This document shows positions 33,672 through 56,856 of a stretch of DNA of 64,000 bases, one piece after another. A model generated the notes under the pieces. That model searched no databases. It saw only the letters and a program-made list of their open reading frames with translations, and was not told the origin of the DNA. A program made the translations under genes and the position numbers. Numbering within the stretch: position 1 is the first letter of the stretch; each line of letters begins with the position of its first letter. Location: the NCBI GenBank assembly GCA_041690135.1, contig JAWLHY010000002.1:848342-912341 (forward strand), read 5' to 3'. The DNA is from Armatimonadota bacterium (GTDB lineage Bacteria > Armatimonadota > SYMT01).

Positions 33672-33726
33672 ACGGAGAGGGTGGGATTCGAACCCACGGA
33701 GGGTTGCCCCTCACCTGTTTTCAAGA
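33672..33726 (-). repeat. att site: 55-bp duplicate of the 3' part of tRNA-Ser
   Basis: acggagagggtgggattcgaacccacggagggttgcccctcacctgttttcaaga, identical to 56771-56825. Confidence 0.97.
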
Positions 33727-33843
33727 TTTGCCCGTCCCACTTCCCCTATGATCCCCAGGCATCCCATCCCCCCCCTTCCCAGGTACAAAACAAGTGGTCC
33801 AAGTGACCTGCGCCAGCCCCTAGGAACCTAACATTTCCTCTGG

Positions 33844-33867
33844 TCGGTTATACGCCGTGTTATACGG
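33844..33867 (+). promoter_or_regulatory. Putative integrase arm-binding site (tandem GTTATACG)
   Basis: tcggttatacgccgtgttatacgg, identical to 56700-56723. Confidence 0.8.
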
Positions 33868-33992
33868 TGAGCCCCGTAAACGGCGCTGGATTTGAGGTGA
33901 ACCCAGCTTCGGCCACGGGTAGTACCCCGAAACATCTGTTCGCAGTACCTCTCCTAACTTGATAGAAGTGCGGATGACGGAGAGGGCGGAAG

Positions 33993-35852
33993 ATGAAATT
34001 TAATGTGGGTGGGTTTCTGGAAGGGCTGGCGGCGGCGGAAGCCGGGACGGCAGCCGGTAAGGCGGCGGCGGTGCAGTTCATCCAGCGGCGGCAGGCGCAG
34101 GAGTTTCAGCAGCGGCTGGCGGGTCTCCGTGCGGCGGGAGACGCATGGAATGACCAGCAGGGGCGGCAGGTCAACACCCGAAACCTGGCGGGGCGCGAAC
34201 TGGTGAGCCTCGCCCGCATGCAGGGGCTGGACCCGAAAGCGCGGGAAGAGCTCATCCGGCAGGGCATGACCTACTTTGACCAGGCGGCGGTGCTCGGTGA
34301 GGTGCCAAACCCCTACGGGCCGGAAGCCTTCCAGAGGTTCTTGCAGGGCACGCCTTACGGGAAGGGGCTCGACGTGGCCCCCACGCCGCCCGTGGGGCCG
34401 CAGAGAGCGCCCCTTACCCTGCCGAAGGGCGAGGGGCCGTTATTCCGGAAGCCGGCGGCCAAGGCGATTGTGGAGCCGATCCGGGACGCTGCGGACCGGG
34501 CGCGCATCCAGGGGATGGCGGACCGCTACGGGAGCCTGCAGCAGCTCCTGGTGGACCTGGAAGCGGGGAAAGTCACGGACGCGCAGGCCTGGGAGAGTTT
34601 CCGGAAACTCGGACCGACGCCCGAACTGGAACCGCTCCGGAAGTGGAGCGCGGGCGCCGGCGCGCGGATCGGGGGACTGCTGAAGGGGGGCGCATTCACT
34701 CCGCAGGCGCGGGAGCAGGCGCTAGAACTGCAGGCAGCCCTGGAAGAGGCGGCCTCGGCCTTTCCGGTCGATCCGGCGGCCCTGGAACCGGTGCGGGGGC
34801 GCTACCTGGCTTTCCTGCGGGATCCGCGCAACTATCGACCCGACACGCAGCAGTTCCGGGAAGTGCAGGAACAGACCCGCAAAGACGAACAGGAAACGCG
34901 CCTGGCGCAGGGTGCCCACCAGCGGAACCACGCGTATCTGCAGGGGATCGCGAATGCGCTCCGCGCCGGCAATACGGGGCAGTTCCGGGAACTGGTCGGC
35001 CAGCAGCGGGCCTTCGTGGCCGCGCAGCCGGCGGGATACGGGCTGCGGGTGTATGGCGGCGAGGCCCTGGACCCTACCCAGCGGCGAAAGGTCGCGCGCC
35101 GGGTGCCGGGTGAGGGTAGAACGGTCACCAGCCCGGAAACGGACGAGGAAGCCGCCGGCAGGGTGCTGCTGGAAGCCCGGCGGTTTGTGGACGGACCGGA
35201 AGGCGTGAAAGCCCTCATCCAGGGGGCGCGAGGCGAGTTGATGCGCGTGTTCCGGCCCGGTCGCTGGGAGGCGCTTCCGGCTGCAGAACGGCGTACGCTG
35301 CTGGAACAACTCGCCGACCTGACCCAGGAGTTGGGGCTGCCGAAGGTCCTCTCGGAAGGGCTGTACGGCCGTCTCACGCCGTTTGAGCGGGCGCTCGTGG
35401 AGAACCGGACCACCGCGCGCGCCGAGGCGAACCGGCACGTGAAGGAACGACAGGCGCTTACCGGGACCGTCGCGCGGAAGGTCGAGGCGGGGCATCTGAC
35501 GCCCGTCCAGGGGAATATCGTAGGGCTGCTGGTTGAGGATCTCGACCGGCTGCAGGGGGAAGCGGCAGAGCTCCGGCGCGTGCATCCCGAGGAGCGGACC
35601 GACGATCAGCGGAAGCGGCTGGAAGTGCTGACGCGCGGGTCGGGAGTAGTCGAACGGGTCCGGCGGGCGATCCGCGACCTGCTGAACCCCGGGCGCCGTA
35701 ACTGGCCGGCCATCCCCAACAAATGGAGCCCGGCCTTCCAGGGTGCGCGGCGGCAGGCAGTCGCCCGTTACCGGGAACGGTTCGGGGATCCCGACCGCGA
35801 CACGCGGCGAGAGCTGTACTATCTGGTCGAGGAAGGCCTCCTGCGACCGTGA
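33993..35852 (+). CDS. Hypothetical helical protein (619 aa), reminiscent of phage DNA-ejection proteins
   Basis: GGAGAGG RBS, long ORF, own terminator; Gly/Ala-rich N-terminus then Q/R/E-rich helical segments; function is inference only. Confidence 0.75.
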   Translation: MKFNVGGFLEGLAAAEAGTAAGKAAAVQFIQRRQAQEFQQRLAGLRAAGDAWNDQQGRQVNTRNLAGRELVSLARMQGLDPKAREELIRQGMTYFDQAAVLGEVPNPYGPEAFQRFLQGTPYGKGLDVAPTPPVGPQRAPLTLPKGEGPLFRKPAAKAIVEPIRDAADRARIQGMADRYGSLQQLLVDLEAGKVTDAQAWESFRKLGPTPELEPLRKWSAGAGARIGGLLKGGAFTPQAREQALELQAALEEAASAFPVDPAALEPVRGRYLAFLRDPRNYRPDTQQFREVQEQTRKDEQETRLAQGAHQRNHAYLQGIANALRAGNTGQFRELVGQQRAFVAAQPAGYGLRVYGGEALDPTQRRKVARRVPGEGRTVTSPETDEEAAGRVLLEARRFVDGPEGVKALIQGARGELMRVFRPGRWEALPAAERRTLLEQLADLTQELGLPKVLSEGLYGRLTPFERALVENRTTARAEANRHVKERQALTGTVARKVEAGHLTPVQGNIVGLLVEDLDRLQGEAAELRRVHPEERTDDQRKRLEVLTRGSGVVERVRRAIRDLLNPGRRNWPAIPNKWSPAFQGARRQAVARYRERFGDPDRDTRRELYYLVEEGLLRP

Positions 35853-35856
35853 GAAG

Positions 35857-35902: not shown

Positions 35903-36394
35903 TCAGAGATCAGCGTCACGCTTGAAGACAGCGATAACTCCTAGGAGAACCCCCACCAGGCGGGGCAGGTCGTGAGTCAGGATTGTCCCGAACGACCAAG
36001 TGAAGTTATCCGGTGAGATACCTGCTAGAACCGGATTAAGCAGCATCCAGGCCACTCCCAGGACGATGGCAACCGAGCGGCGGGAAAAGGGCGCAACCCA
36101 GGCCGCCCCAAAGATCGAAGCTGTAGGGATGACCAGACGCGAAAGGGTTTGCTCCCAGACTGCCAGTGTTTCAGCACTCAGCCTTATGGACGCTTCAGGG
36201 TTCACACCACCAAAGGACACCATGAGTGCCCAGTGCAGAGGGAATGTCGCAAGAAAGCCGATCAACACACCTGCGGGCAACACCAAGATCCAGCGGACCA
36301 TGCATATGAGGAGCGACGGACGGGGTTCGGGGTCATTGTGTGCGTCGCTGGGTTCCGAGTCCCAGCTGCGGTAGGCGAGGCGGGCTTGTTGCAC
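35903..36394 (-). CDS. Small integral membrane protein (~4 TM)
   Basis: GGAG RBS; four hydrophobic segments. Confidence 0.65.
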   Translation of the reverse strand: MQQARLAYRSWDSEPSDAHNDPEPRPSLLICMVRWILVLPAGVLIGFLATFPLHWALMVSFGGVNPEASIRLSAETLAVWEQTLSRLVIPTASIFGAAWVAPFSRRSVAIVLGVAWMLLNPVLAGISPDNFTWSFGTILTHDLPRLVGVLLGVIAVFKRDADL

Positions 36395-36866: not shown

Positions 36867-37394
36867 TCAGGCCGCGACGGGGACCGCGACAGGCCGGCGC
36901 TCGGCGACCGGCTGGCCAATCTTGCCTGCGAGCTGCTGCAGGCGCTCGAACTGGGCGGGCGTGACGAACACCCCCAGACCCTGGTGCAGGGCGGCCACGT
37001 GCTTGCAGGAGAGGCCGGTATCCTGGCACACCCCGGCATCCCGGCAGGTGCAGGAAGAGGGCTCCGCCGCGACCGTATAAACCTCGCCGGAGAGGGAGAG
37101 GACGTGCCATACGGGCTGGTCGGGATCCGCGAGCCAGACATAACCGGGGCCTTCTTCCAGGGCGCGCAGGACGCGTTCTTGCTGGAGTTGCTGAAGCAGG
37201 GCTTCCCGCTTCTGATCGCAGGCAGGCAGGCACACCACGAAGTAGCGATTGGCGCTCCGGGCGCGGGTGCTTTCCAGAACCGTGACGCCCGTGTACTGGG
37301 GATCCTCGCGCAGGCGGTCCGCAAACGCGCGGGCCGGCTCTTCGGGCATGAGCTTCGACCGGTAACCGGGGCCTTCGTGAGTTAAAACAACCAT
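36867..37394 (-). CDS. SWIM zinc-finger protein
   Basis: GGAGG RBS; YTV...CTC-x12-CKH SWIM motif. Confidence 0.8.
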   Translation of the reverse strand: MVVLTHEGPGYRSKLMPEEPARAFADRLREDPQYTGVTVLESTRARSANRYFVVCLPACDQKREALLQQLQQERVLRALEEGPGYVWLADPDQPVWHVLSLSGEVYTVAAEPSSCTCRDAGVCQDTGLSCKHVAALHQGLGVFVTPAQFERLQQLAGKIGQPVAERRPVAVPVAA

Positions 37395-37524
37395 GCTGAT
37401 CCTCCGGGATCTGACAGGGAACGGGGCGCTGATCTTAGCGGGTCTGGGCGCCCCGTTCGTGTGTTTCTGGGCAGGCAGGGTGAAGCGGTAGAGGCCGAGG
37501 GGACCCGTCGGCTGCGCTGCCGCA

Positions 37525-37659
37525 CCGTGCTTGCGTGAAAGCGACATTTTGCGGGGGCGGGCAAAGCGCAAGCCCCCTAGCCCGAAGGGTGCCGAAGGCA
37601 GGCTTGCGCTTTGATCCGAGCGCAGCGACCCCGCGTTAAAATGACGCACGCAAGCACGG
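37525..37659 (+). promoter_or_regulatory. Frpo/ssi-like single-stranded DNA promoter hairpin
   Basis: Nested inverted repeats (two perfect 13-bp stems), GNA mini-hairpins, TTGCGC 37604-37609 and TAAAAT 37637-37642 on the 3' arm. Confidence 0.65.
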
Positions 37660-38561
37660 GAAGGAGATTCCGCCCGCAGGGCACCGCATTGGGTGGCGGG
37701 CGGGCACAGGAGAGCAAGATCGCGGTGGGCGAGCCGGGGATGCCGGTCGCTGTTTGCCGGGAGCCCCGGAGCGCCGACCGTATCCGCATCCCTCACACCC
37801 AGCGCCTGGGGAGCACAGACGCGGCGGGCGCAGAGGAGCGGAGAGAACTGAACGGAAGCGAGAACGGAGCCCGGAGCGGGAACGGGAACGGAGCGACGGT
37901 GGGCCTGGGGCGGTCCGTCGCCCGTGGTTAGCCCGTGCCGTAGTTTGGCGGGGGCGGGGTGGCGGTCCGCCCAGTAGTCAGGCCGGCCGGAGCGAAGTGG
38001 GAGTGAGAGCGGGGCGGAGTGGCAGCGGACGGGAAGGAACGGAGCGGGGACAGCCGGCCGTGGCCCCTGGTGACACGGGATCCGCACCGAACCCCCGTAA
38101 GAGTGACGAGACGGGCAGGCGTGTGGCGCATCCCACACCGGCCCCGCACGCCCGGCAATGGAGACGGAGCCCACTGCTGCGACCGTGTGCCGGGCCTACG
38201 GCAGCCGAACGAGCCTTCTCACTTTGCCGAGACCGGTTCGGGAGTGGCCTGGGTGTCCGAAATAGGAGTAGGAGTAGGAGTAGGACCGCGCACGCCCTGA
38301 CAAGCGTTCTGGCGCTCGCCGTCGATAAGCCCGCTTCTCATCGGGGCCGCCGCTCGGGGGTGGCGGGTGGGCGCTGGAAGGTCTGGGTTGCCGCGCCGTC
38401 CCCGTCGTACGGGTCAGGCGCACCGCATCCGATGTCGGAAAGCGCCTGGAGTGCGCAGACGCGGCGGGCACGGAGGAGCGCAGAGAACGGTGCCTACCCA
38501 ATAGAGTAAAGTGCGGCCGGAAACGCGATTTCGGGGCCTGTCGAACATCAGATCGGCAATG

Positions 38562-40457
38562 CTAGTGTAAGGAGCTAGGGTTGCTGAGCCCAGAAGGCGA
38601 TAGGAGCTTCTCACGAACCTGAAGATCATCTGGCCCGAGTTCGAGATGAGCTTTAATATTGTGTTGTTCTTGTTTAAACCAATCGATCATATGGGACGGT
38701 AGTTTCTTGCAGATCCAGTTCGATGCAAGATCCGCTTCCCCAGCAATGAGAGCGTTGGCATAGAACCCGGCGATGCTCCCCGTCTGGACATCACTTTCGG
38801 ACGACCAAGTGTAGTCCAAACTCTCCCGATACGCATCCATTCGCTTCCTCGCCAGGAATGGGAACTGAGCTGTGACTGTGCTGAATTTACTACCATCCCA
38901 GCCTACAACATGCGATATATCTGAATCGTCTGCATTGCTCCTTTCATAACCCAGGCTAACACTCACGGCTACCTCGGATATTCCGTTGCTGTCCATATCG
39001 GCAACTTCATAACCATTACTATTATTGATCGATCCTATGGTTAGACGCGTCACTTTCCCATCGTGAAGGCGGAGTATCTCAAACGACTGAAAGCCTCCGG
39101 AGCCTTCGCTCACACCCTTGAGACAAAGTTCATCTTCAGCCATATTATCGAGATTAGCGAATACCACTTCAACGAACGAGTCGTCAAAGGTATGTAGAAC
39201 TAGCCCTTTCTCATCTATCAACTCCACTCGTTGTTGTGGATATTCCAAGGCTAGATCTCCTAATGCAACCTTATACTTTGACCATCGCCATGTCCGTTTT
39301 AAAGTCCCCCTAAGTTCCGGGATGGGAACTGGGGTTGATTTATGATCTGATGTTTGCCTAATACCCGCCATTTGAACACTACCGTGCGTATACCAGAATA
39401 CACAACCGACCAGTGCTGGGGTTAGCAGGCATCCGGCGATCCAGTGCCAACCAAATGATTTTCCTAGAGTTGGATGGGTTTGTTCAATCGTTGACTCCCA
39501 ATCGACAGTTGGGTTGGACCCGGCAGTGCGGCACTGGAAGGTAATGTCGTTTATTTGATTGAGAGCTTCAACATCAGATCGTAGATTTGCTGTTCTTACG
39601 ATAATATTAGCTGTAGCAGCACCGAGATTCCAACCAGCTGATCCAAGACCTAGCCCGGCCTGTGCAGCAAAAACCGAAATCCAGCTTCCTCCGAATTTCA
39701 GTGCAATGAAACCGACCGCTGATCCACCTATGGCGCCGAATAATAAGTATGCCGGAATCCACTCCAGATGGGGATTTATAGCAAGCCGCTCTAACCGTAG
39801 GTTGAGCCGCCTCAGCTCAACCAAACGCATAGCACGTTCCTGAAAGACCACCTCTCTCCATTGAGCTATCTTCTTTTCGGACGCTGCCAGTAACAGACTC
39901 TTCTGGGATGCTTGATAGGCATATCGGTAGGCTGATTGCCATGTGCCATGCCGCAATGCCGTAACACTCATTTCCAAGAGCGTGTCGCCCTTCGTAAGCA
40001 GTGATAGGGTTAACCCTATGCCTGCCATAAGCGAAAGTGGGACAAATACGTGCGGTGCCGTCAATAAGCCGAGCACCTTCATTGCGGTACTGATAGTCCC
40101 GAAACTGGCCCCCATCATTCCGAGAGCGGATGCGGACGCCATGAAGATCCCGAATCCTGTAGCATCTGCCGCAGCGGCCATCCCCATGCTCGTGGCTGCC
40201 GTGATTAGACCTGCAGCAAAGGCAGTAGGAGTTGAAGTATCGATCCCAGGGTGACGCAGACGAAACGCCTGCATTTCAGGAGTGGAGACGACTGCTCGCC
40301 ATGGTGAAAACATCCACATCAGACCAAGCGCGACAATTGCGGCACCGATGCTTATCAAATCTGTCGGGGTGGCGGCAAGCCTTCCCGTGAAGCACCCAAT
40401 GATCAGACTCAGGACTAGCGAAAATGATAGAGAGCTCTTATAGGGCAATTTGTGCAT
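38562..40457 (-). CDS. Multi-TM membrane protein with a C-terminal extracytoplasmic domain (low GC)
   Basis: 631 aa; Gly/Ala-rich TM segments; DMDSNGISE FG-GAP-like motif. Confidence 0.7.
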   Translation of the reverse strand: MHKLPYKSSLSFSLVLSLIIGCFTGRLAATPTDLISIGAAIVALGLMWMFSPWRAVVSTPEMQAFRLRHPGIDTSTPTAFAAGLITAATSMGMAAAADATGFGIFMASASALGMMGASFGTISTAMKVLGLLTAPHVFVPLSLMAGIGLTLSLLTKGDTLLEMSVTALRHGTWQSAYRYAYQASQKSLLLAASEKKIAQWREVVFQERAMRLVELRRLNLRLERLAINPHLEWIPAYLLFGAIGGSAVGFIALKFGGSWISVFAAQAGLGLGSAGWNLGAATANIIVRTANLRSDVEALNQINDITFQCRTAGSNPTVDWESTIEQTHPTLGKSFGWHWIAGCLLTPALVGCVFWYTHGSVQMAGIRQTSDHKSTPVPIPELRGTLKRTWRWSKYKVALGDLALEYPQQRVELIDEKGLVLHTFDDSFVEVVFANLDNMAEDELCLKGVSEGSGGFQSFEILRLHDGKVTRLTIGSINNSNGYEVADMDSNGISEVAVSVSLGYERSNADDSDISHVVGWDGSKFSTVTAQFPFLARKRMDAYRESLDYTWSSESDVQTGSIAGFYANALIAGEADLASNWICKKLPSHMIDWFKQEQHNIKAHLELGPDDLQVREKLLSPSGLSNPSSLH

Positions 40458-40694
40458 GTGGGTTTCACTATGGTTAGGGCAGTGCGTTTTTGCGCGATAA
40501 CTACTCGGCCACGCAACCGTCCACGAGCATCCACACACCCATTGCTACTTCAAGAGGCATTGAACCAACGTTGGACGGCGAAGCGAGAGAATTGATAGCA
40601 ACCACTGCTGCCAGATTACGCCGGGCACGCAGAGCGAACTGGAGTGTAACGACCTGATTGAAGCTGCGGTGCCCGCTCGAATGGGTATCCGAGT

Positions 40695-41396
40695 TTACCC
40701 GCCGCACCGGCCGCAGGCCGTGTAGCCTTGGCCCTTCGCGACTTTGAGATTGATCGCGATAGAACTACGACGAAGTGAACTGCAGCCGGCGCGGTGATAC
40801 TTCTCGCCGGTGCGGGTGATGTAGACGGTGCGCGCTTCCACTGCGGGACGTGCGGGAGCACGAGCGACCACGGCGGGGCGTGGGTTGGCCGGTCGCAGCG
40901 CGGCGGGTTGGGGTGCCGGGCGGCTGGGGTTCCGGAACGCCCACGGCGGCTGCGGGTTGGCATCGGCCCACAGGCCACGGCGGGCGGCGCGGGCCTCGAT
41001 TTCCGCTTTGGCGATCTCGGTCTCGCTGCGGCCGTACTGGTGATACCACCAAGCGTAGCCGTTGCGGACCAGGGATAGATTGAGGCTGGAACCGTCGCCG
41101 AGTTTGACGACCCCTACCTTCCGACCGTAACGGTCCGTCTCCTTCACCTCAACCGTAACAGTCTTCTGGAAGCACTTCCCGGCGGTGAACTGCTTGGCAA
41201 CGCTGCCGAAAGGCTGGGCCGATTCCGGGGCGTCCACGGCGTGCAGGCGCACCTTTACCTGGGTCGTGCCGCGAAGGACGGTGAGAGTGTCGCCGTCGGA
41301 GAGTGCAACCACTTTCCCCGTAAAGGTGTCCTGCCCCACGCAGGGCACGGCGATCAACGAGCAGGCGAAGAGAAGAGGTAGGAATCTGCGCAACAT
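40695..41396 (-). CDS. Secreted thermonuclease (SNase family) with a C-terminal Ada-like metal-binding domain
   Basis: AGGAGG RBS, signal peptide; SDGDTL, VRLHAVDAPE, DRYGR, ARAARRGLW; VYITRTGEKYH..C...YTACGRC. Confidence 0.93.
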   Translation of the reverse strand: MLRRFLPLLFACSLIAVPCVGQDTFTGKVVALSDGDTLTVLRGTTQVKVRLHAVDAPESAQPFGSVAKQFTAGKCFQKTVTVEVKETDRYGRKVGVVKLGDGSSLNLSLVRNGYAWWYHQYGRSETEIAKAEIEARAARRGLWADANPQPPWAFRNPSRPAPQPAALRPANPRPAVVARAPARPAVEARTVYITRTGEKYHRAGCSSLRRSSIAINLKVAKGQGYTACGRCGG

Positions 41397-41817
41397 AGAG
41401 CCTCCTGCGGTCGAGGTGAGACGGAAGCAGGGTGACACCCGGATGGTTCGTCAAGTGCTGGGGGAATCCCTCCTACCCTACTGTTCGTGGGAGCCGACCT
41501 GGGAACGGCGAGTGGGCGGCGAGTGAAGATAACACCGAGGCACTGGATGGGCACACAGTGGATGCCGCCGAAAGCAGGGGCGTAGGGAGCGGCCGGACCG
41601 AGGAGCGGAACGGACGGGTAGCTTATCGAAAGCTATCGCACGTTCCGGAGTGAGGACAACGTCGGGCACGAAACACCCCCGAATCCGGCATAACGCGGCG
41701 GCCACGCGAGAGACGTGACCGCGATCACCTATGTCTGACGCCTGTTTCCGGGGTATGAGAGTATCAAACGGACGGATAGGCCATCCGAAGAGCAGGCGGT
41801 TAGCAGGTGAAAGGACC

Positions 41818-42300
41818 ATGGCGTGGAGAAAACCACCCCGGAAGCCATACAAACCTAGGAGTGCAGAGGGCACCTCTGCCATAATGGCAACCGTGCGTAG
41901 CACGAACAACAAGGCTGAGGTGGCGCTTCGGAAAGAACTTTGGCGACGGGGGTATCGTTACCGGCTTTACGATCACCATCTTCCTGGCCGGCCCGACATC
42001 CTCTTTCCTGGCGCACGCGTTATCATCTTTGTAGACGGTGATTTCTGGCACGGCCGCGCGCTGATCGAGCAGAACCCCGAAGCATTAGTGGAAGCCCTTA
42101 GAACTGAGCGTCGCGATTGGTGGCTGGCAAAGATCTCGCGAACTGTTGAGCGTGACCAGAAGAACACAGCACTTCTAACTGAGATGGGGTGGAGTGTTCT
42201 TCGGTTGTGGGAAAGTGAAGTAAAGACTGATCCTCGCGCGGCAGCGGACAGGGCTGCTCGCTTTATCGATGATGCTCGCCGACGATTGCATGCCCCATAG
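41818..42300 (+). CDS. vsr: Very short patch repair endonuclease
   Basis: MATVRSTNNKAE, LPGRPDI, IFVDGDFWHG, RD..N...L...GWSVLRLWE. Confidence 0.93.
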   Translation: MAWRKPPRKPYKPRSAEGTSAIMATVRSTNNKAEVALRKELWRRGYRYRLYDHHLPGRPDILFPGARVIIFVDGDFWHGRALIEQNPEALVEALRTERRDWWLAKISRTVERDQKNTALLTEMGWSVLRLWESEVKTDPRAAADRAARFIDDARRRLHAP

Positions 42301-49043: not shown

Positions 49044-49622
49044 TCACAACACATTCGAAACTGCAGCGACCGTGAGTGCCATCGCCTTTAGTTCTGCGGC
49101 GTTCGCGTCGTTCTGCAACTGCGCGAAGGTGCGTCGGTGCATTCCGCCCGGCCTCATCCCGAACCGCTGGTAGAGTTCAGACCGCTCAAGAGGTGCGCGG
49201 ATCCGGATAGCCTTCCGGAAGAGGCGGCTGGCCAGATCCTCACGGCAGACCTGATAGGCGAGGCCCAGGCAGTGGCGGCAGAGAGGGCCGATTTCGGCGA
49301 CATAGAGGATCGCGACCCGCCGGCTGCAGTCGGCGCCGGGGCACCGAAACCAGGGGCGAGAACCGCCGTAAGTGCAGGGGGTGTGGTCGATCTCGACCCA
49401 CTCCGACCAACCGTCATCGCTGGTGATCCGGAGCGCGTCGCCTATCGTGTGAACCGTAACGCGGGTGAGCGGCACACCTGCCCGATTCCAGGCATAAGAA
49501 CGGCACTCGCCGGGCTGAAGCGTCCCGTTACGATTCAGAACGCGGATGTCCAGCGAGGCGAATTCGTCGGTCGTTGGCTTGCGGTCGCGGGGGCCTCTGC
49601 GGCCGGAGAAGCGGCTGCCCAT
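49044..49622 (-). CDS. Island-type hypothetical zinc-ribbon protein
   Basis: MGSRFSGR N-terminus; YGGSRPWFRCP..CSRRVAILY...CRHCLGLAY; RPGGMHRRTF. Confidence 0.8.
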   Translation of the reverse strand: MGSRFSGRRGPRDRKPTTDEFASLDIRVLNRNGTLQPGECRSYAWNRAGVPLTRVTVHTIGDALRITSDDGWSEWVEIDHTPCTYGGSRPWFRCPGADCSRRVAILYVAEIGPLCRHCLGLAYQVCREDLASRLFRKAIRIRAPLERSELYQRFGMRPGGMHRRTFAQLQNDANAAELKAMALTVAAVSNVL

Positions 49623-49660
49623 GGCGAAAGTTGACTGTTGATTTCGGTAAAATCCAAAGA

Positions 49661-50032
49661 TCAATGCGGAAGCTCGACCACTTCGCGGCCGTGGCTGTCC
49701 GCTATGGAAAGTTTACCAGACTTCCGTTCCGCATAGAGTTGAGCGCCGGCTTCCCCGGTGGGAGCCAGGGTGTAAACGCCACCGCCGTCTTCGTGGGCTT
49801 CGAGGATCACCAGGGACTTGCCGGCGGTCCCCAGGAGACGCAGGACCGGGCCGTTACTGCCTTCGGCCACTTCCAGCAGGGTGCGGCCGTCGCAGCCGAG
49901 AACCCGTAGCGGGGCTTGGATCACGTGCGGGTTCTCGGCGGTTATCTCGGCCTGGCGCAGACGTTCCCGCACGCGGGCGCGATAGGCTCGCTGGCGGTCG
50001 GCCTGGGTGGCGTGTTTGCGAGGTTGGGGCAT
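49661..50032 (-). CDS. Hypothetical protein with a basic N-terminal DNA-binding-like helix
   Basis: AGGA RBS; MPQPRKHATQADRQRAYRAR. Confidence 0.7.
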   Translation of the reverse strand: MPQPRKHATQADRQRAYRARVRERLRQAEITAENPHVIQAPLRVLGCDGRTLLEVAEGSNGPVLRLLGTAGKSLVILEAHEDGGGVYTLAPTGEAGAQLYAERKSGKLSIADSHGREVVELPH

Positions 50033-50044: not shown

Positions 50045-51313
50045 CTATGAAGCGATGCGCAACGGGGGTGGTGGGAGACACCCGCGAGTGAATGAAGGTA
50101 GACAGGGCCGCGCTGGAACTGCCGTATCGTGTGCCACCTTCCGTGCGATCTCGATCAGCCGAGAGGAAGCGGCCTGGACGCCGGGCAGGTCACCTAAGGC
50201 GGCGGCTTCGTCCAGTGAAGGCCAGGAGGCGGAGAGTGCGTCGTCTTCGTGGTGATCGACCCCCACAAGGATTTCCGCCAACTCGCCCCAGGTCTCGCGG
50301 AGTAGCGCTTGGATACGCTCATCGTTCTGTCGAAGGGTGTCCGAAGCTCCGGTTGCCGAGAGCGCGGTATCGGTGGCCAGGAAAGCTCGCAGCCCGACCG
50401 GATCGGCCATCAGCCACGCGTTCCAGTCTTTGTAGCCGACGGGCCGGAGACGATGCACGCCGCCAACGAGAGGGCGAAGGCGCGTCAGCCACTTCTCGGC
50501 GGCCTGATCGCCTGGATCGTCGGCGTCCGTGGCGACGATAACGGGTCGCACCTTACAGGCGACGGAAAACCACGCAGGGAGGCTGGTGCCGAGGGTGGCG
50601 AGGGTCGGGAGCCCGCAAACGTGAAGCGAGAGAGCATCAATCGGAGCTTCGGTTACCACCAACGCGGAAGTGGACCAAGCGCCGGGAGTTGCAAAAGCAC
50701 CCGATGAGAGGGTGCCACGGGTGAGCGCTTTGGGGCCGAACTCATCCGGAGAGATGGCGCGGCCCTGGACACCAACGAGAATGCCGGAGCGATCTCGCAC
50801 CGCAATAACCACGCGCCGAGACGTAGCTACAAGTTTCCATTGGTCATCTTCCTTGACCCAGTGAGGCCAGCGCGGGTGGTAACGGACCTTCGCCGCTAGC
50901 GCCAGGTCTAGGGGGATGCCGCGCTTGGTCAAGTACTCGGCGCCCGGTGTCCCTGGCAGAGGCACCAGCCCCTGGAGCACGCGTTTCCAGTCCGTCATGT
51001 CCGTGGTGACAGGCGCGGGGGAGGGTGGTAACTCCAGGCGAGCCTTGCGCTTGCGCCGGGTGGTCTCTCGGGGGCGGTCCTCCCACCATTCGCGTAACCT
51101 ACCGGCCGAACGCGGATGGCCTGGGCCGGTGGGGCAGCGTGGGCAATTCCAGAAACCCGATTCCATGTTCGCCGAAAGGCACCGGTGAGCGTCGTCCCGA
51201 GGCTTCGTGTGACCACAGAACGGGCAGAGGAAACGGCGCTCGCGTTTTCCTGGCGGAGCTAGAGGATCATAGGCCTCAAGCTCGGCGAGGGAAAGGAAGC
51301 TAGTGTCCCCCAT
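50045..51313 (-). CDS. Toprim DNA primase-like protein with an N-terminal zinc finger
   Basis: CPFC..H...C...CPRC; YLTKRGI; VTEAPIDALS; ATDADDPG; KDWN. Confidence 0.88.
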   Translation of the reverse strand: MGDTSFLSLAELEAYDPLAPPGKRERRFLCPFCGHTKPRDDAHRCLSANMESGFWNCPRCPTGPGHPRSAGRLREWWEDRPRETTRRKRKARLELPPSPAPVTTDMTDWKRVLQGLVPLPGTPGAEYLTKRGIPLDLALAAKVRYHPRWPHWVKEDDQWKLVATSRRVVIAVRDRSGILVGVQGRAISPDEFGPKALTRGTLSSGAFATPGAWSTSALVVTEAPIDALSLHVCGLPTLATLGTSLPAWFSVACKVRPVIVATDADDPGDQAAEKWLTRLRPLVGGVHRLRPVGYKDWNAWLMADPVGLRAFLATDTALSATGASDTLRQNDERIQALLRETWGELAEILVGVDHHEDDALSASWPSLDEAAALGDLPGVQAASSRLIEIARKVAHDTAVPARPCLPSFTRGCLPPPPLRIAS

Positions 51314-52187
51314 TGCTAGCGGCCTCCGTGAACTGCTGCAAAGCACCGTGAAAGGATAGGCGCACCTGTTGACCGGGGGAACCGTTGCGGTTCTTATCGA
51401 GCGTCAGGAGCACTTGCGTGGAACCCGGTGCGGCCACCACGGCATCTTTGGGGGGCGAGAGATCCCACACGGATTCCGCGCCATATTCGAACCGGCGGGT
51501 GCCCGCACTGGCATTCATGCCACCGGAGCCCATCTGAGCGCGGTTGCGCTCGGCGACGGCTACAACCGGGCACTTGAGCTCCTGGGCGAGCGCGCACACC
51601 AGGCTGATGTGCTGATTGAGGGCATCATACTCATTCTGTGCATCCCCCCAGCCTTGAGCCCAACTGTGAAGACTGTCAATCACGATTAGTAGGTGGGGGT
51701 GGTCGCCACGCGTAGCGAGTGCCACGTCTTGTAGCCAGGCCGGGGTAGCATACTCCAGCGTAGCATCCCCTAGCACAAGACCGGGATACTTGGCGACGGT
51801 CTGCTGCGCGAGGGCCAGGGATTCCGCCGGCAGGAGTTCGCCGGATTTGAGTCTCCCGAGGTAAGTTCCAGTCACCCGCGCGGTGAGACGGCGGAATAGC
51901 TCGAGCCGGCCCATTTCGCAGGACAGGAAAAGAGCCGGGCACCCGCATTCGGAAGCGATTTGCAACGCGAGTGCGGTCTTGCCCGTGCCCGGTTGGCCGT
52001 GCATCACGTGCAGCCCCGGCGAGAGGAACCCGCCGAGGATCTGGTCCAATCGCGACAGGCCGGTAACTGGACCCCGTGGGGTCTTGGCTTGCCGTGCCTT
52101 ATGGGCTAATGAAGCGTCCTCCTCCCACACGGAGAGAAGCTCCCCCAGGCGGGATACTGTCAACCTACTACCCTGTTCAGCACCCAT
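51300..52187 (-). CDS. DnaB-like (SF4) helicase, C-terminal domain only
   Basis: TGLSRLDQILGG, GQPGTGKT, FLSCEM, IVIDSL, KNRNG; AAGGAG RBS. Confidence 0.9.
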   Translation of the reverse strand: MGAEQGSRLTVSRLGELLSVWEEDASLAHKARQAKTPRGPVTGLSRLDQILGGFLSPGLHVMHGQPGTGKTALALQIASECGCPALFLSCEMGRLELFRRLTARVTGTYLGRLKSGELLPAESLALAQQTVAKYPGLVLGDATLEYATPAWLQDVALATRGDHPHLLIVIDSLHSWAQGWGDAQNEYDALNQHISLVCALAQELKCPVVAVAERNRAQMGSGGMNASAGTRRFEYGAESVWDLSPPKDAVVAAPGSTQVLLTLDKNRNGSPGQQVRLSFHGALQQFTEAASNGGH

Positions 52188-52281
52188 GACGGGGCTCCTT
52201 TCGAATAAATCCCGGCGCAAACGGCCGGAGCGTGTGAAACGATGACCAGGCGAAGGGGGTGGCGGGAACCAGCCGCCCCCC

Positions 52282-53547
52282 TTAAAGCCTTAGAGTCTTA
52301 GCGAATGGAAATACCCGCTTCCAGGCACGAAACAGCCAACCCAACTGCCGGGATAGGTGAGAGTTTCTGCCGGGATAGGTGGGAGTTTCTGCCGGGATAG
52401 GTGGTGAGGTGCAGGTGTACAACAGCACCGGTCTTGCCGAAGAACCACACGAGCTTTGCCCAGTCGAGATGCGCCGTTCGGCATAGTGTGCGAGGTCGTC
52501 CCGCACGCACGGGGGCGGCGGAAGGTGGACTCGACGGTTGAGGAAGGCTTCAAGTTGCCCTCTGCGGGTGAGCGCATAGCGATCTTCCGGATGTGTCAGC
52601 ACATCATCGACCCAGTCCTTGAGCGGCATCCCATCGGGGGGAGCCGCCAGGCACTCCACATCGATTAACTGCCCCAAAGCGGCATAGAGGCTGTTGATGA
52701 ACTCTCCCGGATGGTCAAACTGGCGATCGGTTATCTCGATACCGGCCTCGTATAGGTGGCTCCGCCAACTCCGATAGCGGGGCTTAAAGGGAGAAGGTGG
52801 AAGGGAGACGTATTGGGGGGCATTCAGCCGCCAGTCCCTACGGAGATAACGCCCGAGGCGCTTCGCGGTGCGCTGGCGGTAGGGGTCGAGGTGAAGGAGC
52901 CGGGGGGAGAAAGCCGCGACAAAGTATCTGTTGTCGGAGAGGGCTGCGGCTACAAATGCTCCTGGACTATACACATAGATAAGAGCGCCCTGATTCTTGC
53001 CGTTCTCCGGGTGAATAGAGTCGATTTCCAGGAGTTGTGAGTCAATCCCATTAGTCTGAATCCGGAATCCCCTGATGTCGCACATTGCTTTCTTGCACTC
53101 TCTGAGTGCCTTGTCCAGGGGCTTCACGTGCCGATACCTGCAAATGTCGCGTAACGAAAGACAGGCTTTGGCCGGACGCTGGTAATGAAGCCAATGGAGG
53201 ATGGCAATGTCAAAGATATCTGCCAGCGTATCCTCTTTCATCTGCAGGAACTGAGATTCAACCTCGGACATGACGGCGTCACTATGCCGTAGCCACCAGG
53301 CATCGCCATACCGCTCTTCGGGCCGCCGTTCAGGTGACCAGGTTACAACGACCTCCGGGTTCTGGGCCTCTTGATAGTACCGGTTAGCTTCGGCAGGATT
53401 GCTTTGCCAATCGTCACGACGTACGAACGAGCGGTGTAGAACTTGGTCTACTGGGCCATTCGGCACTCTAACAATTGGTCCACAGTAGACAGGATGAGAT
53501 CTCCGGGCGGCAAGACTATTCAACGGTCTTGGTGGCTGCTTCCCCAT
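52282..53547 (-). CDS. Putative replication initiator
   Basis: Lies between xis and helicase/primase and has iterons in its 3' end; no family motif recognised. Confidence 0.55.
   Translation of the reverse strand: MGKQPPRPLNSLAARRSHPVYCGPIVRVPNGPVDQVLHRSFVRRDDWQSNPAEANRYYQEAQNPEVVVTWSPERRPEERYGDAWWLRHSDAVMSEVESQFLQMKEDTLADIFDIAILHWLHYQRPAKACLSLRDICRYRHVKPLDKALRECKKAMCDIRGFRIQTNGIDSQLLEIDSIHPENGKNQGALIYVYSPGAFVAAALSDNRYFVAAFSPRLLHLDPYRQRTAKRLGRYLRRDWRLNAPQYVSLPPSPFKPRYRSWRSHLYEAGIEITDRQFDHPGEFINSLYAALGQLIDVECLAAPPDGMPLKDWVDDVLTHPEDRYALTRRGQLEAFLNRRVHLPPPPCVRDDLAHYAERRISTGQSSCGSSARPVLLYTCTSPPIPAETPTYPGRNSHLSRQLGWLFRAWKRVFPFAKTLRL
52345..52403. repeat. Three 22-bp iteron-like direct repeats (putative oriV)
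   Basis: ctgccgggataggtg(a/g)gagttt at 52345, 52367 and 52389 (third copy partial). Confidence 0.8.
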
Positions 53548-53609: not shown

Positions 53610-53843
53610 TCAGAAGCGAGCCGATGTGACTTGGACTGCCAGGGTCTCCGCAACAGCGGGAAACCGGCGGATAAACACGAGGGTTTCCAGTGCGGCAATC
53701 CACTCCGCAGCCGGTAGTGAGTACTCGGAGGCGAGGGTCTCGCACTCCGATCGGATTACCGACTGCAGGGCAGACTCCGCTGTACGACATCCGGCGCATA
53801 CGGCGATCCGGAGCAGATAGTAGAGGCGCTCATTACTCGGCAT
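53610..53843 (-). CDS. Small hypothetical protein
   Basis: 77 aa; overlaps the xis stop, same strand as the replication operon. Confidence 0.4.
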   Translation of the reverse strand: MPSNERLYYLLRIAVCAGCRTAESALQSVIRSECETLASEYSLPAAEWIAALETLVFIRRFPAVAETLAVQVTSARF

Positions 53844-54060
53844 CGTCGCTGGGCAATTGAGCCTCGGAGCGCGCTGCGCCTTCGAGGAGGGCGCGGATTG
53901 CGGATTTCGGAACCAGAATGCGACGCCCTACCCGAAACGAGTAAATCTGTCTGTTCCTGATGAATTCGCGTGATTGTCGCTCGCCAATGTTCAGGATCCT
54001 AGCCAATCCGGCTGGGCTCACGGCCCACGGCGGGCTATAGAGGTCTAGATTCTCAGCCAT
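53833..54060 (-). CDS. Excisionase-like HTH_17 DNA-binding protein
   Basis: SPAGLARILNIG....FIRNRQIYSFRVGRRILVPKSAI. Confidence 0.88.
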   Translation of the reverse strand: MAENLDLYSPPWAVSPAGLARILNIGERQSREFIRNRQIYSFRVGRRILVPKSAIRALLEGAARSEAQLPSDDAE

Positions 54061-54348: not shown

Positions 54349-54387
54349 CAGGTGTCACACTGACAATACAAAATCGTGTGACACCTG
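54349..54387. promoter_or_regulatory. Operator-like 12-bp perfect inverted repeat in the divergent control region
   Basis: caggtgtcacac-N15-gtgtgacacctg. Confidence 0.7.
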
Positions 54388-54401
54388 GGAGCCATTCCGA
54401 A

Positions 54402-55457
54402 ATGCAGTTAAAGCTGAACTGGGCGAGGGGTGATTACGAGATCGTAGCGGGGCGAGTGCGACCGAGAGGACCTACGGAGGCATACGCGATTGCTTCCGAA
54501 TGGATGGGCCGTGGGCGGCGGACCAACGGTGGCCAATTGGCTGTCTCACTTGCGGGGGTAAGGTTACCCGACCGCAACCTTTCCGTGGATGAATATGCGT
54601 CAGAGGTTGTAGAGCCGCTCCTCGGTTTCTATCGGCAGTGGGGGCCTTTGGGACTTGCGCACCATGAGTTTGGTAGACAGAGCCATGTGCCGCAAGTTCA
54701 CGGGGAAGTTTGGGTGTGGGATGTCGCACCTGACGGCTACCGACGCGTGTTTGAGGCTTTGGACGGTGAGCGGGAGGTCTGGCCACAGCAGATTGGGCGG
54801 CCAGCTTACCCAGGCGGGCCGCTGCCAGTGGCGCAGGATCCAATGAAGAGCGAAGGGGGAAGACCACCGACGGCGACTGTGTTTATCCAGAGTAAACGTA
54901 TAGGGTCGCAATTGTGCTCGGCGACGGAGTTTTACGGGCGCTACTTCCCGAATGCGGTGGAGGGGCGGAGTCCGCAATATCCGATCAGGTTTCCCAATAT
55001 AGTCGTTGGAGGCAGTGCGTTCTGGGATGGGTATCAAGAACCGCTGAACCACGCATTACTTGAGATCGGGGACTTTCAGGATCTCTGGCGTGAAGTAGCG
55101 GAGGCTTCCGTTTATCGGGGAGATCCGAAAGGGCGAACGGAGTGGGTGGAGACAAACCTTATGCCGTACTTGAGAAAGGTTCATCCCCGCTTGGAAGTCC
55201 GCGAGGATGGGATGTTTGAGGGAGTGCTCTGGGCTCCTTCGCTGCTGGATGCAGCTTACTTCGAACTCGCCGCTGTGGCTATGCAAAGTTATGCGAGAAT
55301 CTGCATTCGCTGCGGCAAGCCTTTCGTCACGCCGACCGGCAAACGGCAGGCGTGCCCCAAGCCTAAGGCGTGTGATGATTACGTGCGGAAGTGGAAGGAG
55401 CGGCATCCTAGAGAGCCTTTATCCAAGCTGCCAAAGAAACTAGAAAGGGGATCCTGA
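54402..55457 (+). CDS. Hypothetical protein with a C-terminal CGNR-like zinc finger (putative regulator)
   Basis: RICIRCGKPF....KRQAC....C...VRKWKER; TGATG coupling to the integrase. Confidence 0.7.
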   Translation: MQLKLNWARGDYEIVAGRVRPRGPTEAYAIASEWMGRGRRTNGGQLAVSLAGVRLPDRNLSVDEYASEVVEPLLGFYRQWGPLGLAHHEFGRQSHVPQVHGEVWVWDVAPDGYRRVFEALDGEREVWPQQIGRPAYPGGPLPVAQDPMKSEGGRPPTATVFIQSKRIGSQLCSATEFYGRYFPNAVEGRSPQYPIRFPNIVVGGSAFWDGYQEPLNHALLEIGDFQDLWREVAEASVYRGDPKGRTEWVETNLMPYLRKVHPRLEVREDGMFEGVLWAPSLLDAAYFELAAVAMQSYARICIRCGKPFVTPTGKRQACPKPKACDDYVRKWKERHPREPLSKLPKKLERGS

Positions 55458-56620
55458 TGGCGGGGCATTTGAAGGACCTGGGCAACGGTAAGTGGCGCGC
55501 GTGGTTTGACCTACCGCGCGGGGAAGACGGCCGGCGACAGCAAAAGGTAGTCACCTTTCAGGCGAAGGGCCGGCGCGAGGCGGATAAGCACGTAGCCAAG
55601 TTGGTAGCTGATGCCAACGCAGGCAGGATTCTCGCACCCACGAAGCACACCGTCGAGACCTACTTAGCCGAATGGCTGGAGAAGCGCGGGCAGGATAATC
55701 TATCGCCGAAGACGCTGGAGACCTGGGGCGATCTGGCGCGGGCCTACATCCATCCCCGGATCGGCAAAGTGGTGCTGGAGAAGCTCACCCCGAAGCAGGT
55801 AGATGATCTGTATAACGGGCTCCTGCTGAACGGACGAGTGAGAGGGGACGGAGGCTTATCCCGCAGGAGCGTGCTACACGTGCACCGGCTGCTGTCCGAG
55901 GCGCTGAAGCACGCGGTGAAGGTCGAACTGATCCCGCGCAATCCCTGCGATGGGATGGCGCCAAAAGGAGTCCGGCACAAGGAACGGGAGGCGGTCGAAG
56001 AGTTCGATGCGGAAGCGCTCGGGAAGCTCCTGGAGGCGACGAAAGACACCTGGCTGTATGTCCCCATCGTCCTGGCGACCGGCATGGGAATGCGCCGGGG
56101 GGAATGCCTGGGGCTGATCTGGGAGAACGTGGATTTCAAGAGCGGAGCCATCCATACCCGCATCTCGGTCCAGCAGCTCCGGGGAAAGGGTACCTTCGAG
56201 AAGAGGCCGAAAGGGGAGCGGACGCGAACCGCCGCCATGCCGGGCTTCGTGGCCGGCGCGCTACGCAAGCACAAAAGCGCGCAGGCGGCCCACCGGCTGC
56301 AGGTCGGCGAAGCGTGGGAAGACCGGGGATTCGTGGTGACCGATGGATTCGGGAACCCGAGGTCGCCGGGCTCGCTCACCCATGCCTTTCGGGATGTGAT
56401 CGAACGGGAAGGGCTCCCGAAGATCACCTTTCACGATCTGCGGCACGTGAACGCTACCCTGCTGCTGTTGAAGGGCGTGGACGTGAAGATCGTTTCGGAG
56501 CGGCTGGGGCACTCCACCAGCGCGATCACGCGCGATCTCTACCAACACGTCTTGCGGCCGATGGATCAGGAAGCCGCACGCGCGACGGATGATTTCTTCC
56601 GGGGTGCAGTGGGTGGGTAG
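55457..56620 (+). CDS. int: Tyrosine recombinase/integrase (ICEBs1-like)
   Basis: GMRRGECLGL, FHDLRH, SERLGH, DLYQH catalytic residues; N-terminal arm-binding region; adjacent to att. Confidence 0.97.
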   Translation: MAGHLKDLGNGKWRAWFDLPRGEDGRRQQKVVTFQAKGRREADKHVAKLVADANAGRILAPTKHTVETYLAEWLEKRGQDNLSPKTLETWGDLARAYIHPRIGKVVLEKLTPKQVDDLYNGLLLNGRVRGDGGLSRRSVLHVHRLLSEALKHAVKVELIPRNPCDGMAPKGVRHKEREAVEEFDAEALGKLLEATKDTWLYVPIVLATGMGMRRGECLGLIWENVDFKSGAIHTRISVQQLRGKGTFEKRPKGERTRTAAMPGFVAGALRKHKSAQAAHRLQVGEAWEDRGFVVTDGFGNPRSPGSLTHAFRDVIEREGLPKITFHDLRHVNATLLLLKGVDVKIVSERLGHSTSAITRDLYQHVLRPMDQEAARATDDFFRGAVGG

Positions 56621-56624
56621 GATG

Positions 56625-56723
56625 GTATAACATCCCTCGTGTTATACGTGGGCGGAAAAAAGGCCGGGAAAGGCCCGATTCTGCACGGTGAAAACCACAT
56701 CGGTTATACGCCGTGTTATACGG
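56625..56723. promoter_or_regulatory. Putative integrase arm-binding sites
   Basis: GTTATACG at 56641, 56703 and 56715; inverted GTATAAC at 56625. Confidence 0.75.
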
Positions 56724-56771
56724 AAGCCTTCCCGGCCCGGTTGCAGGGTGTATCGATCTTACAGTTAAGCA

Positions 56772-56856
56772 CGGAGAGGGTGGGATTCGAACCCACGGAG
56801 GGTTGCCCCTCACCTGTTTTCAAGACAGGCTCCTTAAACCACTCGGACACCTCTCC
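56772..56856 (-). tRNA. tRNA-Ser(TGA)
   Basis: GGAGAGGTGTCCGAGTGGTTTAAGGAGCCTGTCTTGAAAACAGGTGAGGGGCAACCCTCCGTGGGTTCGAATCCCACCCTCTCCG: cloverleaf, long variable arm, anticodon TGA, no encoded CCA. Confidence 0.97.

Follow-up and report, generated by a model that had tools for sequence, protein, structure and literature searches.

A tRNA-Ser island of an Armatimonadota bacterium as the probable integrated form of a plasmid from an undescribed family

Elements that integrate into tRNA genes by means of a tyrosine recombinase, carry a small replication module together with cargo and encode no transfer genes constitute a kind of mobile DNA that has already been described. Tycheposons, found in Prochlorococcus and other marine bacteria, are one example; they possess a tRNA-targeting, inward-facing tyrosine recombinase at one end, an optional small replication module and cargo, use tRNA-Ser(TGA) as one of their sites, carry no conjugation genes and include a cargo-carrying type without capsid genes (bioRxiv 10.1101/2020.12.28.424599). 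[quoted passage not shown] Pipolins, likewise integrative and bounded by direct repeats, combine defence systems with a gene for self-replication, and their hallmark is a primer-independent PolB (bioRxiv 10.1101/2024.05.22.595293). The present analysis concerns an island inserted at a tRNA-Ser(TGA) gene of an Armatimonadota bacterium (assembly GCA_041690135.1), at positions 33672-56825 of a 64,000-nt stretch of contig JAWLHY010000002.1, the whole of which we call the window.

We consider it probable that the island represents the inserted state of an integrative plasmid whose family is undescribed, with an initiator family that is new and an iteron origin whose location is clear. An integrative plasmid would be an episome existing either as a free circle or inserted into the chromosome. 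The family is found in Armatimonadota-like and neighbouring soil bacteria and is unnamed so far. Compared by gene layout, the island has the architecture by which tycheposons are defined in the preprint cited above. It differs from the elements described there in phylum and habitat, and in possessing an annotation-free, presumably iteron-binding initiator family common to small circular replicons. In concept, the island stands near tycheposons and further cryptic integrated elements, and its likeness to a phage satellite is smaller. An earlier reading of the same DNA, made from the letters without database searches (hereafter the sequence-only reading), had proposed a possibly undescribed class of element. 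The initiator family has no Pfam, PHROG, NCBIfam or PDB-sequence match; the general kind of element was already known, for example from tycheposons. Searches of an open-access library brought up no account of elements of this kind in Armatimonadota or Abditibacteriota, nor any of the replication module.

The borders of the island are defined by four features.

33672-33726 (no strand): attL, a 55-nt copy of the 3' part of tRNA-Ser(TGA), 100% identical to 56771-56825
33844-33867 (+): left arm-type sites, two copies of GTTATACG inside a 24-nt exact repeat
56641-56723 (+): right arm-type sites, three copies of GTTATACG
56771-56825 (no strand): attR, inside the tRNA-Ser(TGA) gene at 56772-56856 (-)

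The two att repeats are identical at 55/55 positions and spaced 23,099 bp apart. The window holds one full copy of tRNA-Ser(TGA), at 56772-56856 (-), whose 3' 54-55 nt recur exactly at 33672-33726, and no third copy of the 25-nt att end when up to three mismatches are allowed. The octamer GTTATACG occurs five times in the 64 kb (at 33847, 33859, 56641, 56703 and 56715), each time within about 170 bp on the inner side of an att copy, against a chance expectation of 0.43 and with none of 100 shuffles reaching five. The 24-nt exact repeat lies at 33844 and 56700, and the distribution of the octamer looks like that of arm-type integrase sites. The GC content is 0.605 in the island, 0.667 in the flanks and 0.651 in the genome. 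Because of the identical att copies, this GC contrast and the clustered GTTATACG sites, we conclude that the island is real and complete at both ends, with a predicted circle of 23,099 bp. The sequence-only reading had deduced the same att repeats at tRNA-Ser, the arm sites and a circle of that length, and all three stand.

Twenty-eight open reading frames (ORFs) of the island were compared with Pfam (E<=0.01, ten of them again under relaxed conditions), 20 with PHROGs and ten each with NCBIfam and PADLOC. On the right arm, the int gene and a 359-aa gene on the plus strand are divergent from a xis-rep-helicase-primase series on the minus strand, whose replication genes and their downstream neighbours are listed here.

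52282-53547 (-): rep, 421 aa, initiator of an uncharacterised family, with a homologous core at residues ~17-364 and a tail that runs through the iterons
52345-52400 (no strand): iterons, three copies of CTGCCGGGATAGGTG with a 22-bp period, at the 3' end of the rep ORF and just upstream of the helicase gene
51300-52220 (-): DnaB-type helicase, 306 aa, C-terminal RecA-like domain only (DnaB_C 1.1e-19)
50045-51346 (-): DnaG-like primase with CxxC zinc finger, DUF7146 and Toprim (Toprim_2 3.9e-10, DUF7146 9.3e-9, phrog_47 primase 4.8e-27)
49044-50032 (-): genes for a 206-aa Cys-rich protein and a 123-aa protein downstream of the primase, without families

In a set of 1.84 billion representative proteins, 63 are related to Rep at E<=1e-3. 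Pfam gave no match for any of 43 members of the family (0/43), and Rep itself matched nothing in PHROGs, NCBIfam or PDB sequences. The top Foldseek rows of its AlphaFold2 (AF2) model (pLDDT 82.3, pTM 0.73) are RctB domains 2-3, RepE, pPS10 RepA and a WH1 Rep, all of them iteron-type initiators, and the model suggests that a winged-helix initiator fold is likely. At 52345 the window has its one array in which three 9-mers follow each other at equal spacing (20-23 bp). At least three direct repeats with a 21-22-bp period, of locus-specific sequence, also lie between rep and the helicase gene in all 22 relatives examined; the other 183,006 bp of the same loci, taken as a control, contain one such 9-mer array. 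Direct repeats of about 20 bp next to rep, the mark of iteron plasmids, are thus present in the island as in 22/22 relatives. A conserved position combined with a divergent sequence is the pattern that would be expected of iterons co-evolving with their initiator, and we infer that the array is the origin of vegetative replication, oriV. The helicase profile matches DnaB C-terminal domains in the PDB at 7e-16. Downstream of the primase, the 206-aa protein has a homologue (33%) on the circular relative L018 and the 123-aa protein a paralogue (29%) on contig C14 of the host. Compared with their homologues, int, xis, rep, helicase and primase are full length and devoid of internal stops. A 96-nt tRNA-Arg(CCG) that ARAGORN placed inside the primase gene (50965-51060, +) is a probable false positive, with no Rfam tRNA at E<=1.

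In the IncQ plasmid RSF1010, an iteron-binding initiator (RepC), a helicase (RepA, an ATPase of the DnaB-like hexameric-helicase type) and a primase (RepB') are combined with iterons; IncQ plasmids carry mob genes and do not integrate. RepB' and the sites ssiA and ssiB of IncQ are dealt with in PMC8567376. The likeness of the island to IncQ is functional and consists of three element-encoded proteins and about three direct repeats of 20-22 bp. A sequence relationship was not detected, neither RepC nor any other Rep family of Pfam was matched, the island primase is of the zinc-finger/Toprim and not of the RepB' type, and single-strand initiation (ssi) hairpins were not identified beside the island iterons.

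A scan of metagenome contigs with the Rep profile recovered 25 loci with the same-strand order Rep, helicase, primase. The helicase is present in 24 of these (43-58% identity) and the primase in 23 (29-45%), the misses falling at contig ends or in locus L027. Nine of the 25 contigs are circular, with an exact 127-nt terminal overlap, and measure 5,450-12,538 bp. A tyrosine integrase is encoded by three of the nine circles (L020, L027 and L030) and a serine recombinase by one (L038); the integrase gene stands directly upstream of HTH_17-rep-helicase in L027 and L030 and elsewhere on the circle in L020. The smallest circle, L027 (5,450 bp), contains a tyrosine integrase, a 222-aa helix-turn-helix protein of the HTH_17 family, Rep, the helicase and a 171-aa ORF, and no primase; the HTH_17 family call for the circles is that of L027 alone, and a gene of the HTH_17 cluster abuts rep in 13/25 loci. 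Among the further genes of the circles are those for a PIN toxin, for an MmeI-type restriction-modification enzyme and for homologues of two island products, all counted as cargo, the staphylococcal-nuclease-type (SNase) protein and the 206-aa protein. Because the same module occurs on circular metagenome contigs, the island backbone is the backbone of small free replicons too. Among 25 of the 39 Pfam families matched by 43 large ORFs from five larger relatives were ParA-type ATPases (2), Phage_rep_O (2), restriction-modification and transposase families, and no relaxase, type IV secretion system (T4SS) or virion family.

Scanning one genome per species with the helicase profile revealed the helicase-primase pair in Chloroflexota, Abditibacterium (two copies), Chthonomonas, Armatimonadota and Thermoleophilia metagenome-assembled genomes, the Thermoleophilia copy adjoining a tRNA-Thr gene and an integrase. 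The best match of the helicase in PLSDB (46%) belongs to pIAD-21 (AP024153.1), a plasmid of 102.9 kb, circular and complete, from an Abditibacteriota isolate. The gene preceding it there codes for a Rep homologue that is distant (hhalign 86%, E=5e-6), and a 21-bp repeat is present in 4.3 copies between the two genes. Within a few kb of this pIAD-21 module (L067, 7119-9852), a gene for the error-prone polymerase dnaE2 is annotated, and no primase follows the helicase. We conclude that the replication module is of plasmid type, because it resides on nine circular contigs of 5.4-12.5 kb and, distantly, on a complete 103-kb plasmid. Scans with the Rep profile returned no match in the genome contig collection, the IMG/VR viral contigs or PLSDB (tblastn), and three weak matches in 400 other genomes of the phylum.

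The integration module occupies the right end of the island.

55457-56620 (+): int, tyrosine integrase (Phage_integrase 4.5e-21, with Phage_int_SAM_3)
54378-55457 (+): 359-aa protein (start probably the ATG at 54402, giving 351 aa), with a C-terminal Cys cluster and a stop codon overlapping the int start
54350-54386 (no strand): operator-like inverted repeat, perfect 10-nt arms AGGTGTCACA / TGTGACACCT with a 17-nt spacer, in the divergent control region
53833-54060 (-): xis-like gene, 75-aa excisionase-like HTH_17 protein (2.6e-6, 28 bits for a cut-off of 27)

The xis-like protein has a 35% homologue next to a related integrase in genome G005 (see below). The sequence-only reading had identified int, xis, the Rep-like ORF with iterons, the DnaB-like helicase and the Toprim primase, all of which stand, and it had called the gene upstream of int a regulator, for which no recognisable family was found. 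This 359-aa ORF has no Pfam, PHROGs, NCBIfam or PADLOC family, Pfam giving none even at E<=5, and a search of 5.8 billion clusters returned its own window protein and no other homologue. The leads for it are an atlas link to DUF6076-like clusters (score 0.96) and a weak homologue in G005 (E=2e-4) in the same position beside the integrase. The inverted repeat at 54350-54386 overlaps a minus-strand promoter-like site (54366-54338), and its sequence suggests an operator-like function.

Four genomes from other genera of the host's family (G005, G007, G001 and G002) were compared at the tRNA-Ser(TGA)/DUF1015 locus. Integrase homologues 43-56% identical to that of the island stand next to the same tRNA-Ser in G005 and G007. 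The G005 site combines the 43% integrase, the 35% xis and the weak 359-aa homologue, other genes replacing rep-helicase-primase; that locus (L063, G005:C74, 10560-13723) encodes a 395-aa protein matching REP_ORF2-G2P below the cut-off (E=1.9e-4), a UvrD-PDDEXK protein and an AAA protein. A related int/xis pair accompanied by a different candidate replication gene suggests module swapping. In G007, a partial integrase (56%) is followed by two-component genes, forming a short int-only insertion, and in G001 (L065, G001:C29) two 53-nt repeats of the tRNA-Ser 3' end (8133-8185 and 10556-10608), 2,423 bp apart, delimit a 2.4-kb remnant. In G002, the tRNA-Ser adjoins DUF1015 and no integrase or repeat occurs within 10 kb. 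The sequence-only reading had pointed to an empty site in related genomes as a telling observation; G002 looks unoccupied, but it is an apparent empty site only, since its far flank is not syntenic. Because kin of int sit at the same site in G005 and G007, accompanied in G005 by kin of xis, while neither gene has a match in the 25 metagenome loci, we regard the tRNA-Ser(TGA)/DUF1015 site as a hotspot and the island as a mosaic of a local integration module, a plasmid replication module and cargo. A second integrase of the host genome (G000:C23:36913-38052), 41% identical to that of the island, is located near the end of a 40.5-kb contig with a GC content of 0.620; none of the island's other genes recur there, and a further element may be present on this contig.

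Capsid, terminase, portal, tail, relaxase, type IV coupling protein (T4CP) and T4SS families matched none of the 28 island ORFs compared with Pfam and none of the 20 compared with PHROGs, in which the matches were to primase and helicase families and not to virion or packaging ones; the sequence-only reading, too, had recognised no capsid, terminase, relaxase, coupling-protein or T4SS gene in the island. The host genome (9.1 Mb, 97% complete) was searched in six frames, control genomes giving matches in each case. It yielded no match to VirB4, VirD4-type T4CP, Relaxase, MobA_MobL or TrwC (MOBP, MOBQ, MOBF) and none to HK97 capsid, Terminase_6N, TerL_ATPase or portal. The genome encodes one FtsK, at C2:1,054,552, outside the island. 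Relatives of Rep and of a 619-aa ORF of the left arm were absent from 2.9 million IMG/VR contigs. Because these genome-wide transfer and virion searches and the IMG/VR searches were empty, there is no positive evidence for a phage or conjugative helper. A helper-dependent element had been proposed beforehand; helper dependence is possible but unsupported, no resident helper having been found in the host genome and the module sitting on free circles. Likewise, because packaging, relaxase, T4SS and virion genes were not found, the island is not classified as a PICI (phage-inducible chromosomal island), a P4-like satellite, an integrative mobilisable element (IME), an integrative and conjugative element (ICE) or AICE, or a prophage. 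From ICEs and AICEs it is further set apart by the absence of any VirB4 or T4CP match: AICEs carry an FtsK-like Tra protein (TraB), whereas the sole FtsK of this genome lies outside the island. It differs from pipolins in that no polymerase family was matched among the 28 island ORFs (Pfam).

From this anatomy, a life cycle can be proposed. As the arrangement of the borders shows, the tyrosine integrase, acting on the att core and the GTTATACG arm sites, inserts the element at the 3' end of tRNA-Ser(TGA) and rebuilds the tRNA gene; together with the HTH_17 excisionase-like protein, it would excise the 23,099-bp circle. The circle would replicate from the three 22-bp iterons, bound by a winged-helix-like Rep that may recruit the element's own DnaB-C-type helicase and DnaG-like primase. 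Such three-protein replication, independent of the host initiator, would be a functional analogue of the IncQ RepC/RepA/RepB' system. The remainder would be cargo: a Dcm/Vsr/McrB-like restriction-type cluster, the SNase-type nuclease, membrane proteins and orphans. Because the element encodes no transfer apparatus, movement between cells would be passive or borrowed, with transformation, vesicles, transduction or mobilisation as possible routes. The island is complete, probably excision-competent and equipped with its own replication module.

Several observations weigh against this interpretation. At 23.1 kb, the island is larger than any of the nine circles, and its int and xis have no counterpart in the 25 metagenome loci (0/25), so that the element is a mosaic and not a simple integrated copy of such a circle. 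The tRNA fragment, as a candidate attP, was not found at E<=1 in the integrase-bearing circles L020, L027 and L030, in the non-circular L025 or in the serine-recombinase circle L038. The structural match of Rep is weak (best E 1.9e-3, TM 0.29/0.43, no matches at E<=0.001), and Rep does not have the N-terminal extension of about 150-230 aa of most relatives, short forms existing in P0005, P0011 and P0025. An int operon divergent from xis-rep is the layout of PICI-type satellites as well. Excision and replication of this particular copy are, finally, predictions drawn from its sequence.

The middle of the island contains cargo.

40695-41438 (-): staphylococcal-nuclease-type nuclease (SNase 2.9e-26) with an N-terminal hydrophobic leader
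41731-42300 (+): Vsr very-short-patch repair endonuclease (Vsr 4e-21; PADLOC Vsr 1.5e-17)
42375-43679 (+): C5-cytosine DNA methyltransferase, Dcm type (DNA_methylase 5.2e-58; PADLOC MTase_II 1.9e-108)
43683-46909 (+): three-gene putative restriction module encoding a 229-aa protein, a 432-aa AAA_5 McrB-like ATPase and a 422-aa protein
48192-48500 (-): Cro/CI-type HTH regulator (HTH_3 1.2e-18)

Defence-type cargo spans about 6 kb, and the Vsr, Dcm, McrB-like AAA_5 ATPase and SNase genes substantiate the defence cargo announced by the sequence-only reading. The SNase has homologues on the relatives L018 (54%) and L021 (39%). The 432-aa ATPase matches AAA_5 at 1.1e-12 and, in the PDB, 6ut3, a McrB-family 'GTPase subunit of restriction endonuclease' (E=3.5e-5). 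The 229-aa and 422-aa ORFs have no family match, and the latter no PDB sequence match; from its position, the 422-aa protein may be the nuclease partner of the McrB-like ATPase. A D...ExK motif read by eye in the 422-aa ORF is not counted as evidence.

The left arm carries orphan genes and a conspicuous hairpin.

33993-35852 (+): 619-aa all-alpha protein, without family (AF2 pLDDT 73, nearly all helix)
35903-36394 (-): 163-aa ORF with hydrophobic stretches, read from the translation, without Pfam or PHROG match
36867-37394 (-): 175-aa protein, weakly similar to the SWIM zinc finger (E=0.0015; 18.5 bits for a cut-off of 19.6)
~37525-37660 (no strand): long imperfect hairpin of ~135 nt, within a 1.1-kb stretch without convincing ORF
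38562-40538 (-): predicted membrane protein of 658 aa, where the GC content per kilobase is lowest in the island (0.48, genome 0.65)

The 619-aa ORF has no Pfam, PHROG, NCBIfam or PADLOC match and no IMG/VR relative; besides its own window protein (P0001), it has three homologues, at 60-73% identity, among the 5.8 billion clusters. Foldseek gave nothing at E<0.01 in PDB or BFVD, the best fold matches being designed helical repeats and internal-virion or ejectosome proteins appearing at a non-significant E of 0.1-1.2. Atlas searches provided weak leads to Uroviricota hypotheticals (score 0.90). The product had been described as ejection-protein-like, a label which is reduced by these results to a weak lead, no family and no significant fold match having been found. 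The 175-aa protein has a 40% paralogue on contig C1. The gene of the 658-aa membrane protein, without family at E<=0.01 in Pfam, PHROGs, NCBIfam or PADLOC (best PliI, E=0.031), looks like a recent acquisition inside the island.

The strongest structure signal of the left arm is at 37440-37800, where the most structured 240-nt window has a z of -6.3. A 371-nt fold of the hairpin reaches z -5.2 and -5.35 on the two strands, no shuffle out of 100 being as stable, and the hairpin is present in a single copy in the genome. It had been taken for an Frpo-like single-stranded DNA promoter: the unusually stable hairpin exists, but no sigma-70-like hexamer pair was found on either strand of 37350-38600, and the promoter interpretation was rejected in the absence of -35/-10-like hexamers. 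The hairpin could be an ssi site, an origin of transfer (oriT) or a terminator. The same 1.1-kb ORF-poor region contains a G-rich stretch of about 130-140 nt (37948-38089), without Rfam match, of which an 81% identical reversed copy lies at G000:C2:999616-999756 (L068), about 87 kb past the window end. A 48-nt direct repeat, 88% identical, is found in the ORF-poor stretch at 37801-37848 and 38441-38488, 640 bp apart.

If the island were a phage satellite of the PICI, P4 or PICMI kind, a helper phage would induce its excision and replication and package it in the helper's capsids. The PICI-like layout, with an int operon divergent from xis-rep-helicase-primase and an iteron origin beside rep, speaks for this, as do the Cro/CI-type repressor and, for the 619-aa ORF, the weak Uroviricota leads (0.90) and the non-significant virion and ejectosome rows (E 0.1-1.2). 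The small circle size is no objection, very small satellites such as PICMI being reported in a preprint (bioRxiv 10.1101/2023.07.18.549517). Features in common with PICIs and P4 are int, a xis/AlpA-like HTH protein, an adjacent iteron origin, divergent control, integration of the tRNA type and cargo of the anti-phage type. In SatelliteFinder, PICIs and their cfPICI variants are recognised by an integrase, an AlpA/xis-type regulator and a pri-rep module, along with packaging or capsid functions. The integrase, the xis-type regulator and the replication module are present in the island, the HTH protein belonging to HTH_17 and not to Phage_AlpA. However, no terS, capsid, portal, head-size-redirecting or other virion or packaging match was obtained among the 20 ORFs compared with PHROGs and the 28 compared with Pfam, nor were psu, sid, delta and epsilon of P4 matched in PHROGs, and initiator, helicase and primase are separate proteins where P4 has the alpha primase-helicase. 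Moreover, Rep and the 619-aa ORF have no relatives in IMG/VR, the 97%-complete host genome shows no prophage hallmark (HK97 capsid, TerL_ATPase, Terminase_6N or portal), and the module also occurs on a 103-kb plasmid, with ParA-type partition genes on larger relatives. The island, at 23.1 kb, is also larger than PICIs, for which 10-20 kbp are quoted in the tycheposon preprint cited above (bioRxiv 10.1101/2020.12.28.424599). We regard a phage satellite as unlikely.

Mobilisation in trans by a conjugative element, which would make the island an IME, requires an unrecognised oriT, perhaps the hairpin at 37.5 kb, and possibly an unrecognised relaxase. Many mobilisable elements carry an oriT alone, the hairpin is unusually stable, single-copy and located in a non-coding stretch, and several orphan proteins could hide a new relaxase. 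Nevertheless, no relaxase family was found in the island ORFs, the genome has no MOBP, MOBQ, MOBF, VirB4 or VirD4-type T4CP and a single FtsK, the hairpin has no relatives, and on the minimal 5.4-kb circle nothing else fits besides int, HTH_17, rep, the helicase gene and a single ORF of 171 aa; an IME is thus highly unlikely. A hybrid of satellite and mobilisable features, as advanced in the sequence-only reading, is not supported: the island has neither a packaging nor a relaxase gene, and both leading-region clues, the promoter and the ejection protein, have fallen. Very little probability is also left to an immobile remnant or domesticated defence island, that is, a prophage, ICE or plasmid insertion that has decayed and been retained for the sake of its restriction genes. 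Some 6 kb of defence-type cargo and the 1.1-kb stretch without convincing ORF would suit it, and decay does occur at the hotspot, as illustrated by the 2.4-kb G001 remnant with its 53-nt repeats and by the short int-only insertion of G007. Yet the two att copies agree at 55/55 positions, the genes int, xis, rep, helicase and primase keep their full length without internal stops, the backbone equals that of complete circular relatives and no fragments of phage or conjugation genes were found in the island ORFs (Pfam, PHROGs).

The integrative-plasmid interpretation can be extended, tentatively and with considerable doubt, to an unrecognised replicon lineage spanning several phyla (Armatimonadota, Abditibacteriota, Chloroflexota and Thermoleophilia). 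The island and the circles would then be self-sufficient three-protein replicons, whose initiators form a new family that binds iterons and work with a DnaB-like helicase in truncated form and a DnaG-like primase. They would pass freely from the plasmid to the tRNA-integrated state and back through exchange of integrase modules and spread without conjugation or virion genes, for instance through vesicles or transformation. On this extended reading, the hairpin of the left arm and the 619-aa all-alpha protein, which is conserved in its kin, could together provide a new establishment or transfer function. Almost nothing was found on mobile elements of Armatimonadota and their neighbours in the open-access literature searched, and this locus ties a chromosomal island to small circular replicons through one conserved replication module. 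It offers an initiator family that is new and whose origin has a clear place, open to direct test, and a candidate backbone for genetic tools in phyla without vectors. It also adds a further case, outside marine cyanobacteria, of integrative elements that carry cargo and defence genes, replicate and encode no transfer machinery, and it bears on gene movement in bacteria where conjugation systems and prophages are undetected.

Just outside attL, a tandem 7-nt repeat, (CCTCACG)n, extends over 33313-33387, between the island and the left flanking gene. The latter (30526-33201, -) has a product of 891 aa in which a trypsin-like peptidase is joined to numerous WD40 repeats, and it shows no synteny with the tRNA-Ser locus in the relatives checked.

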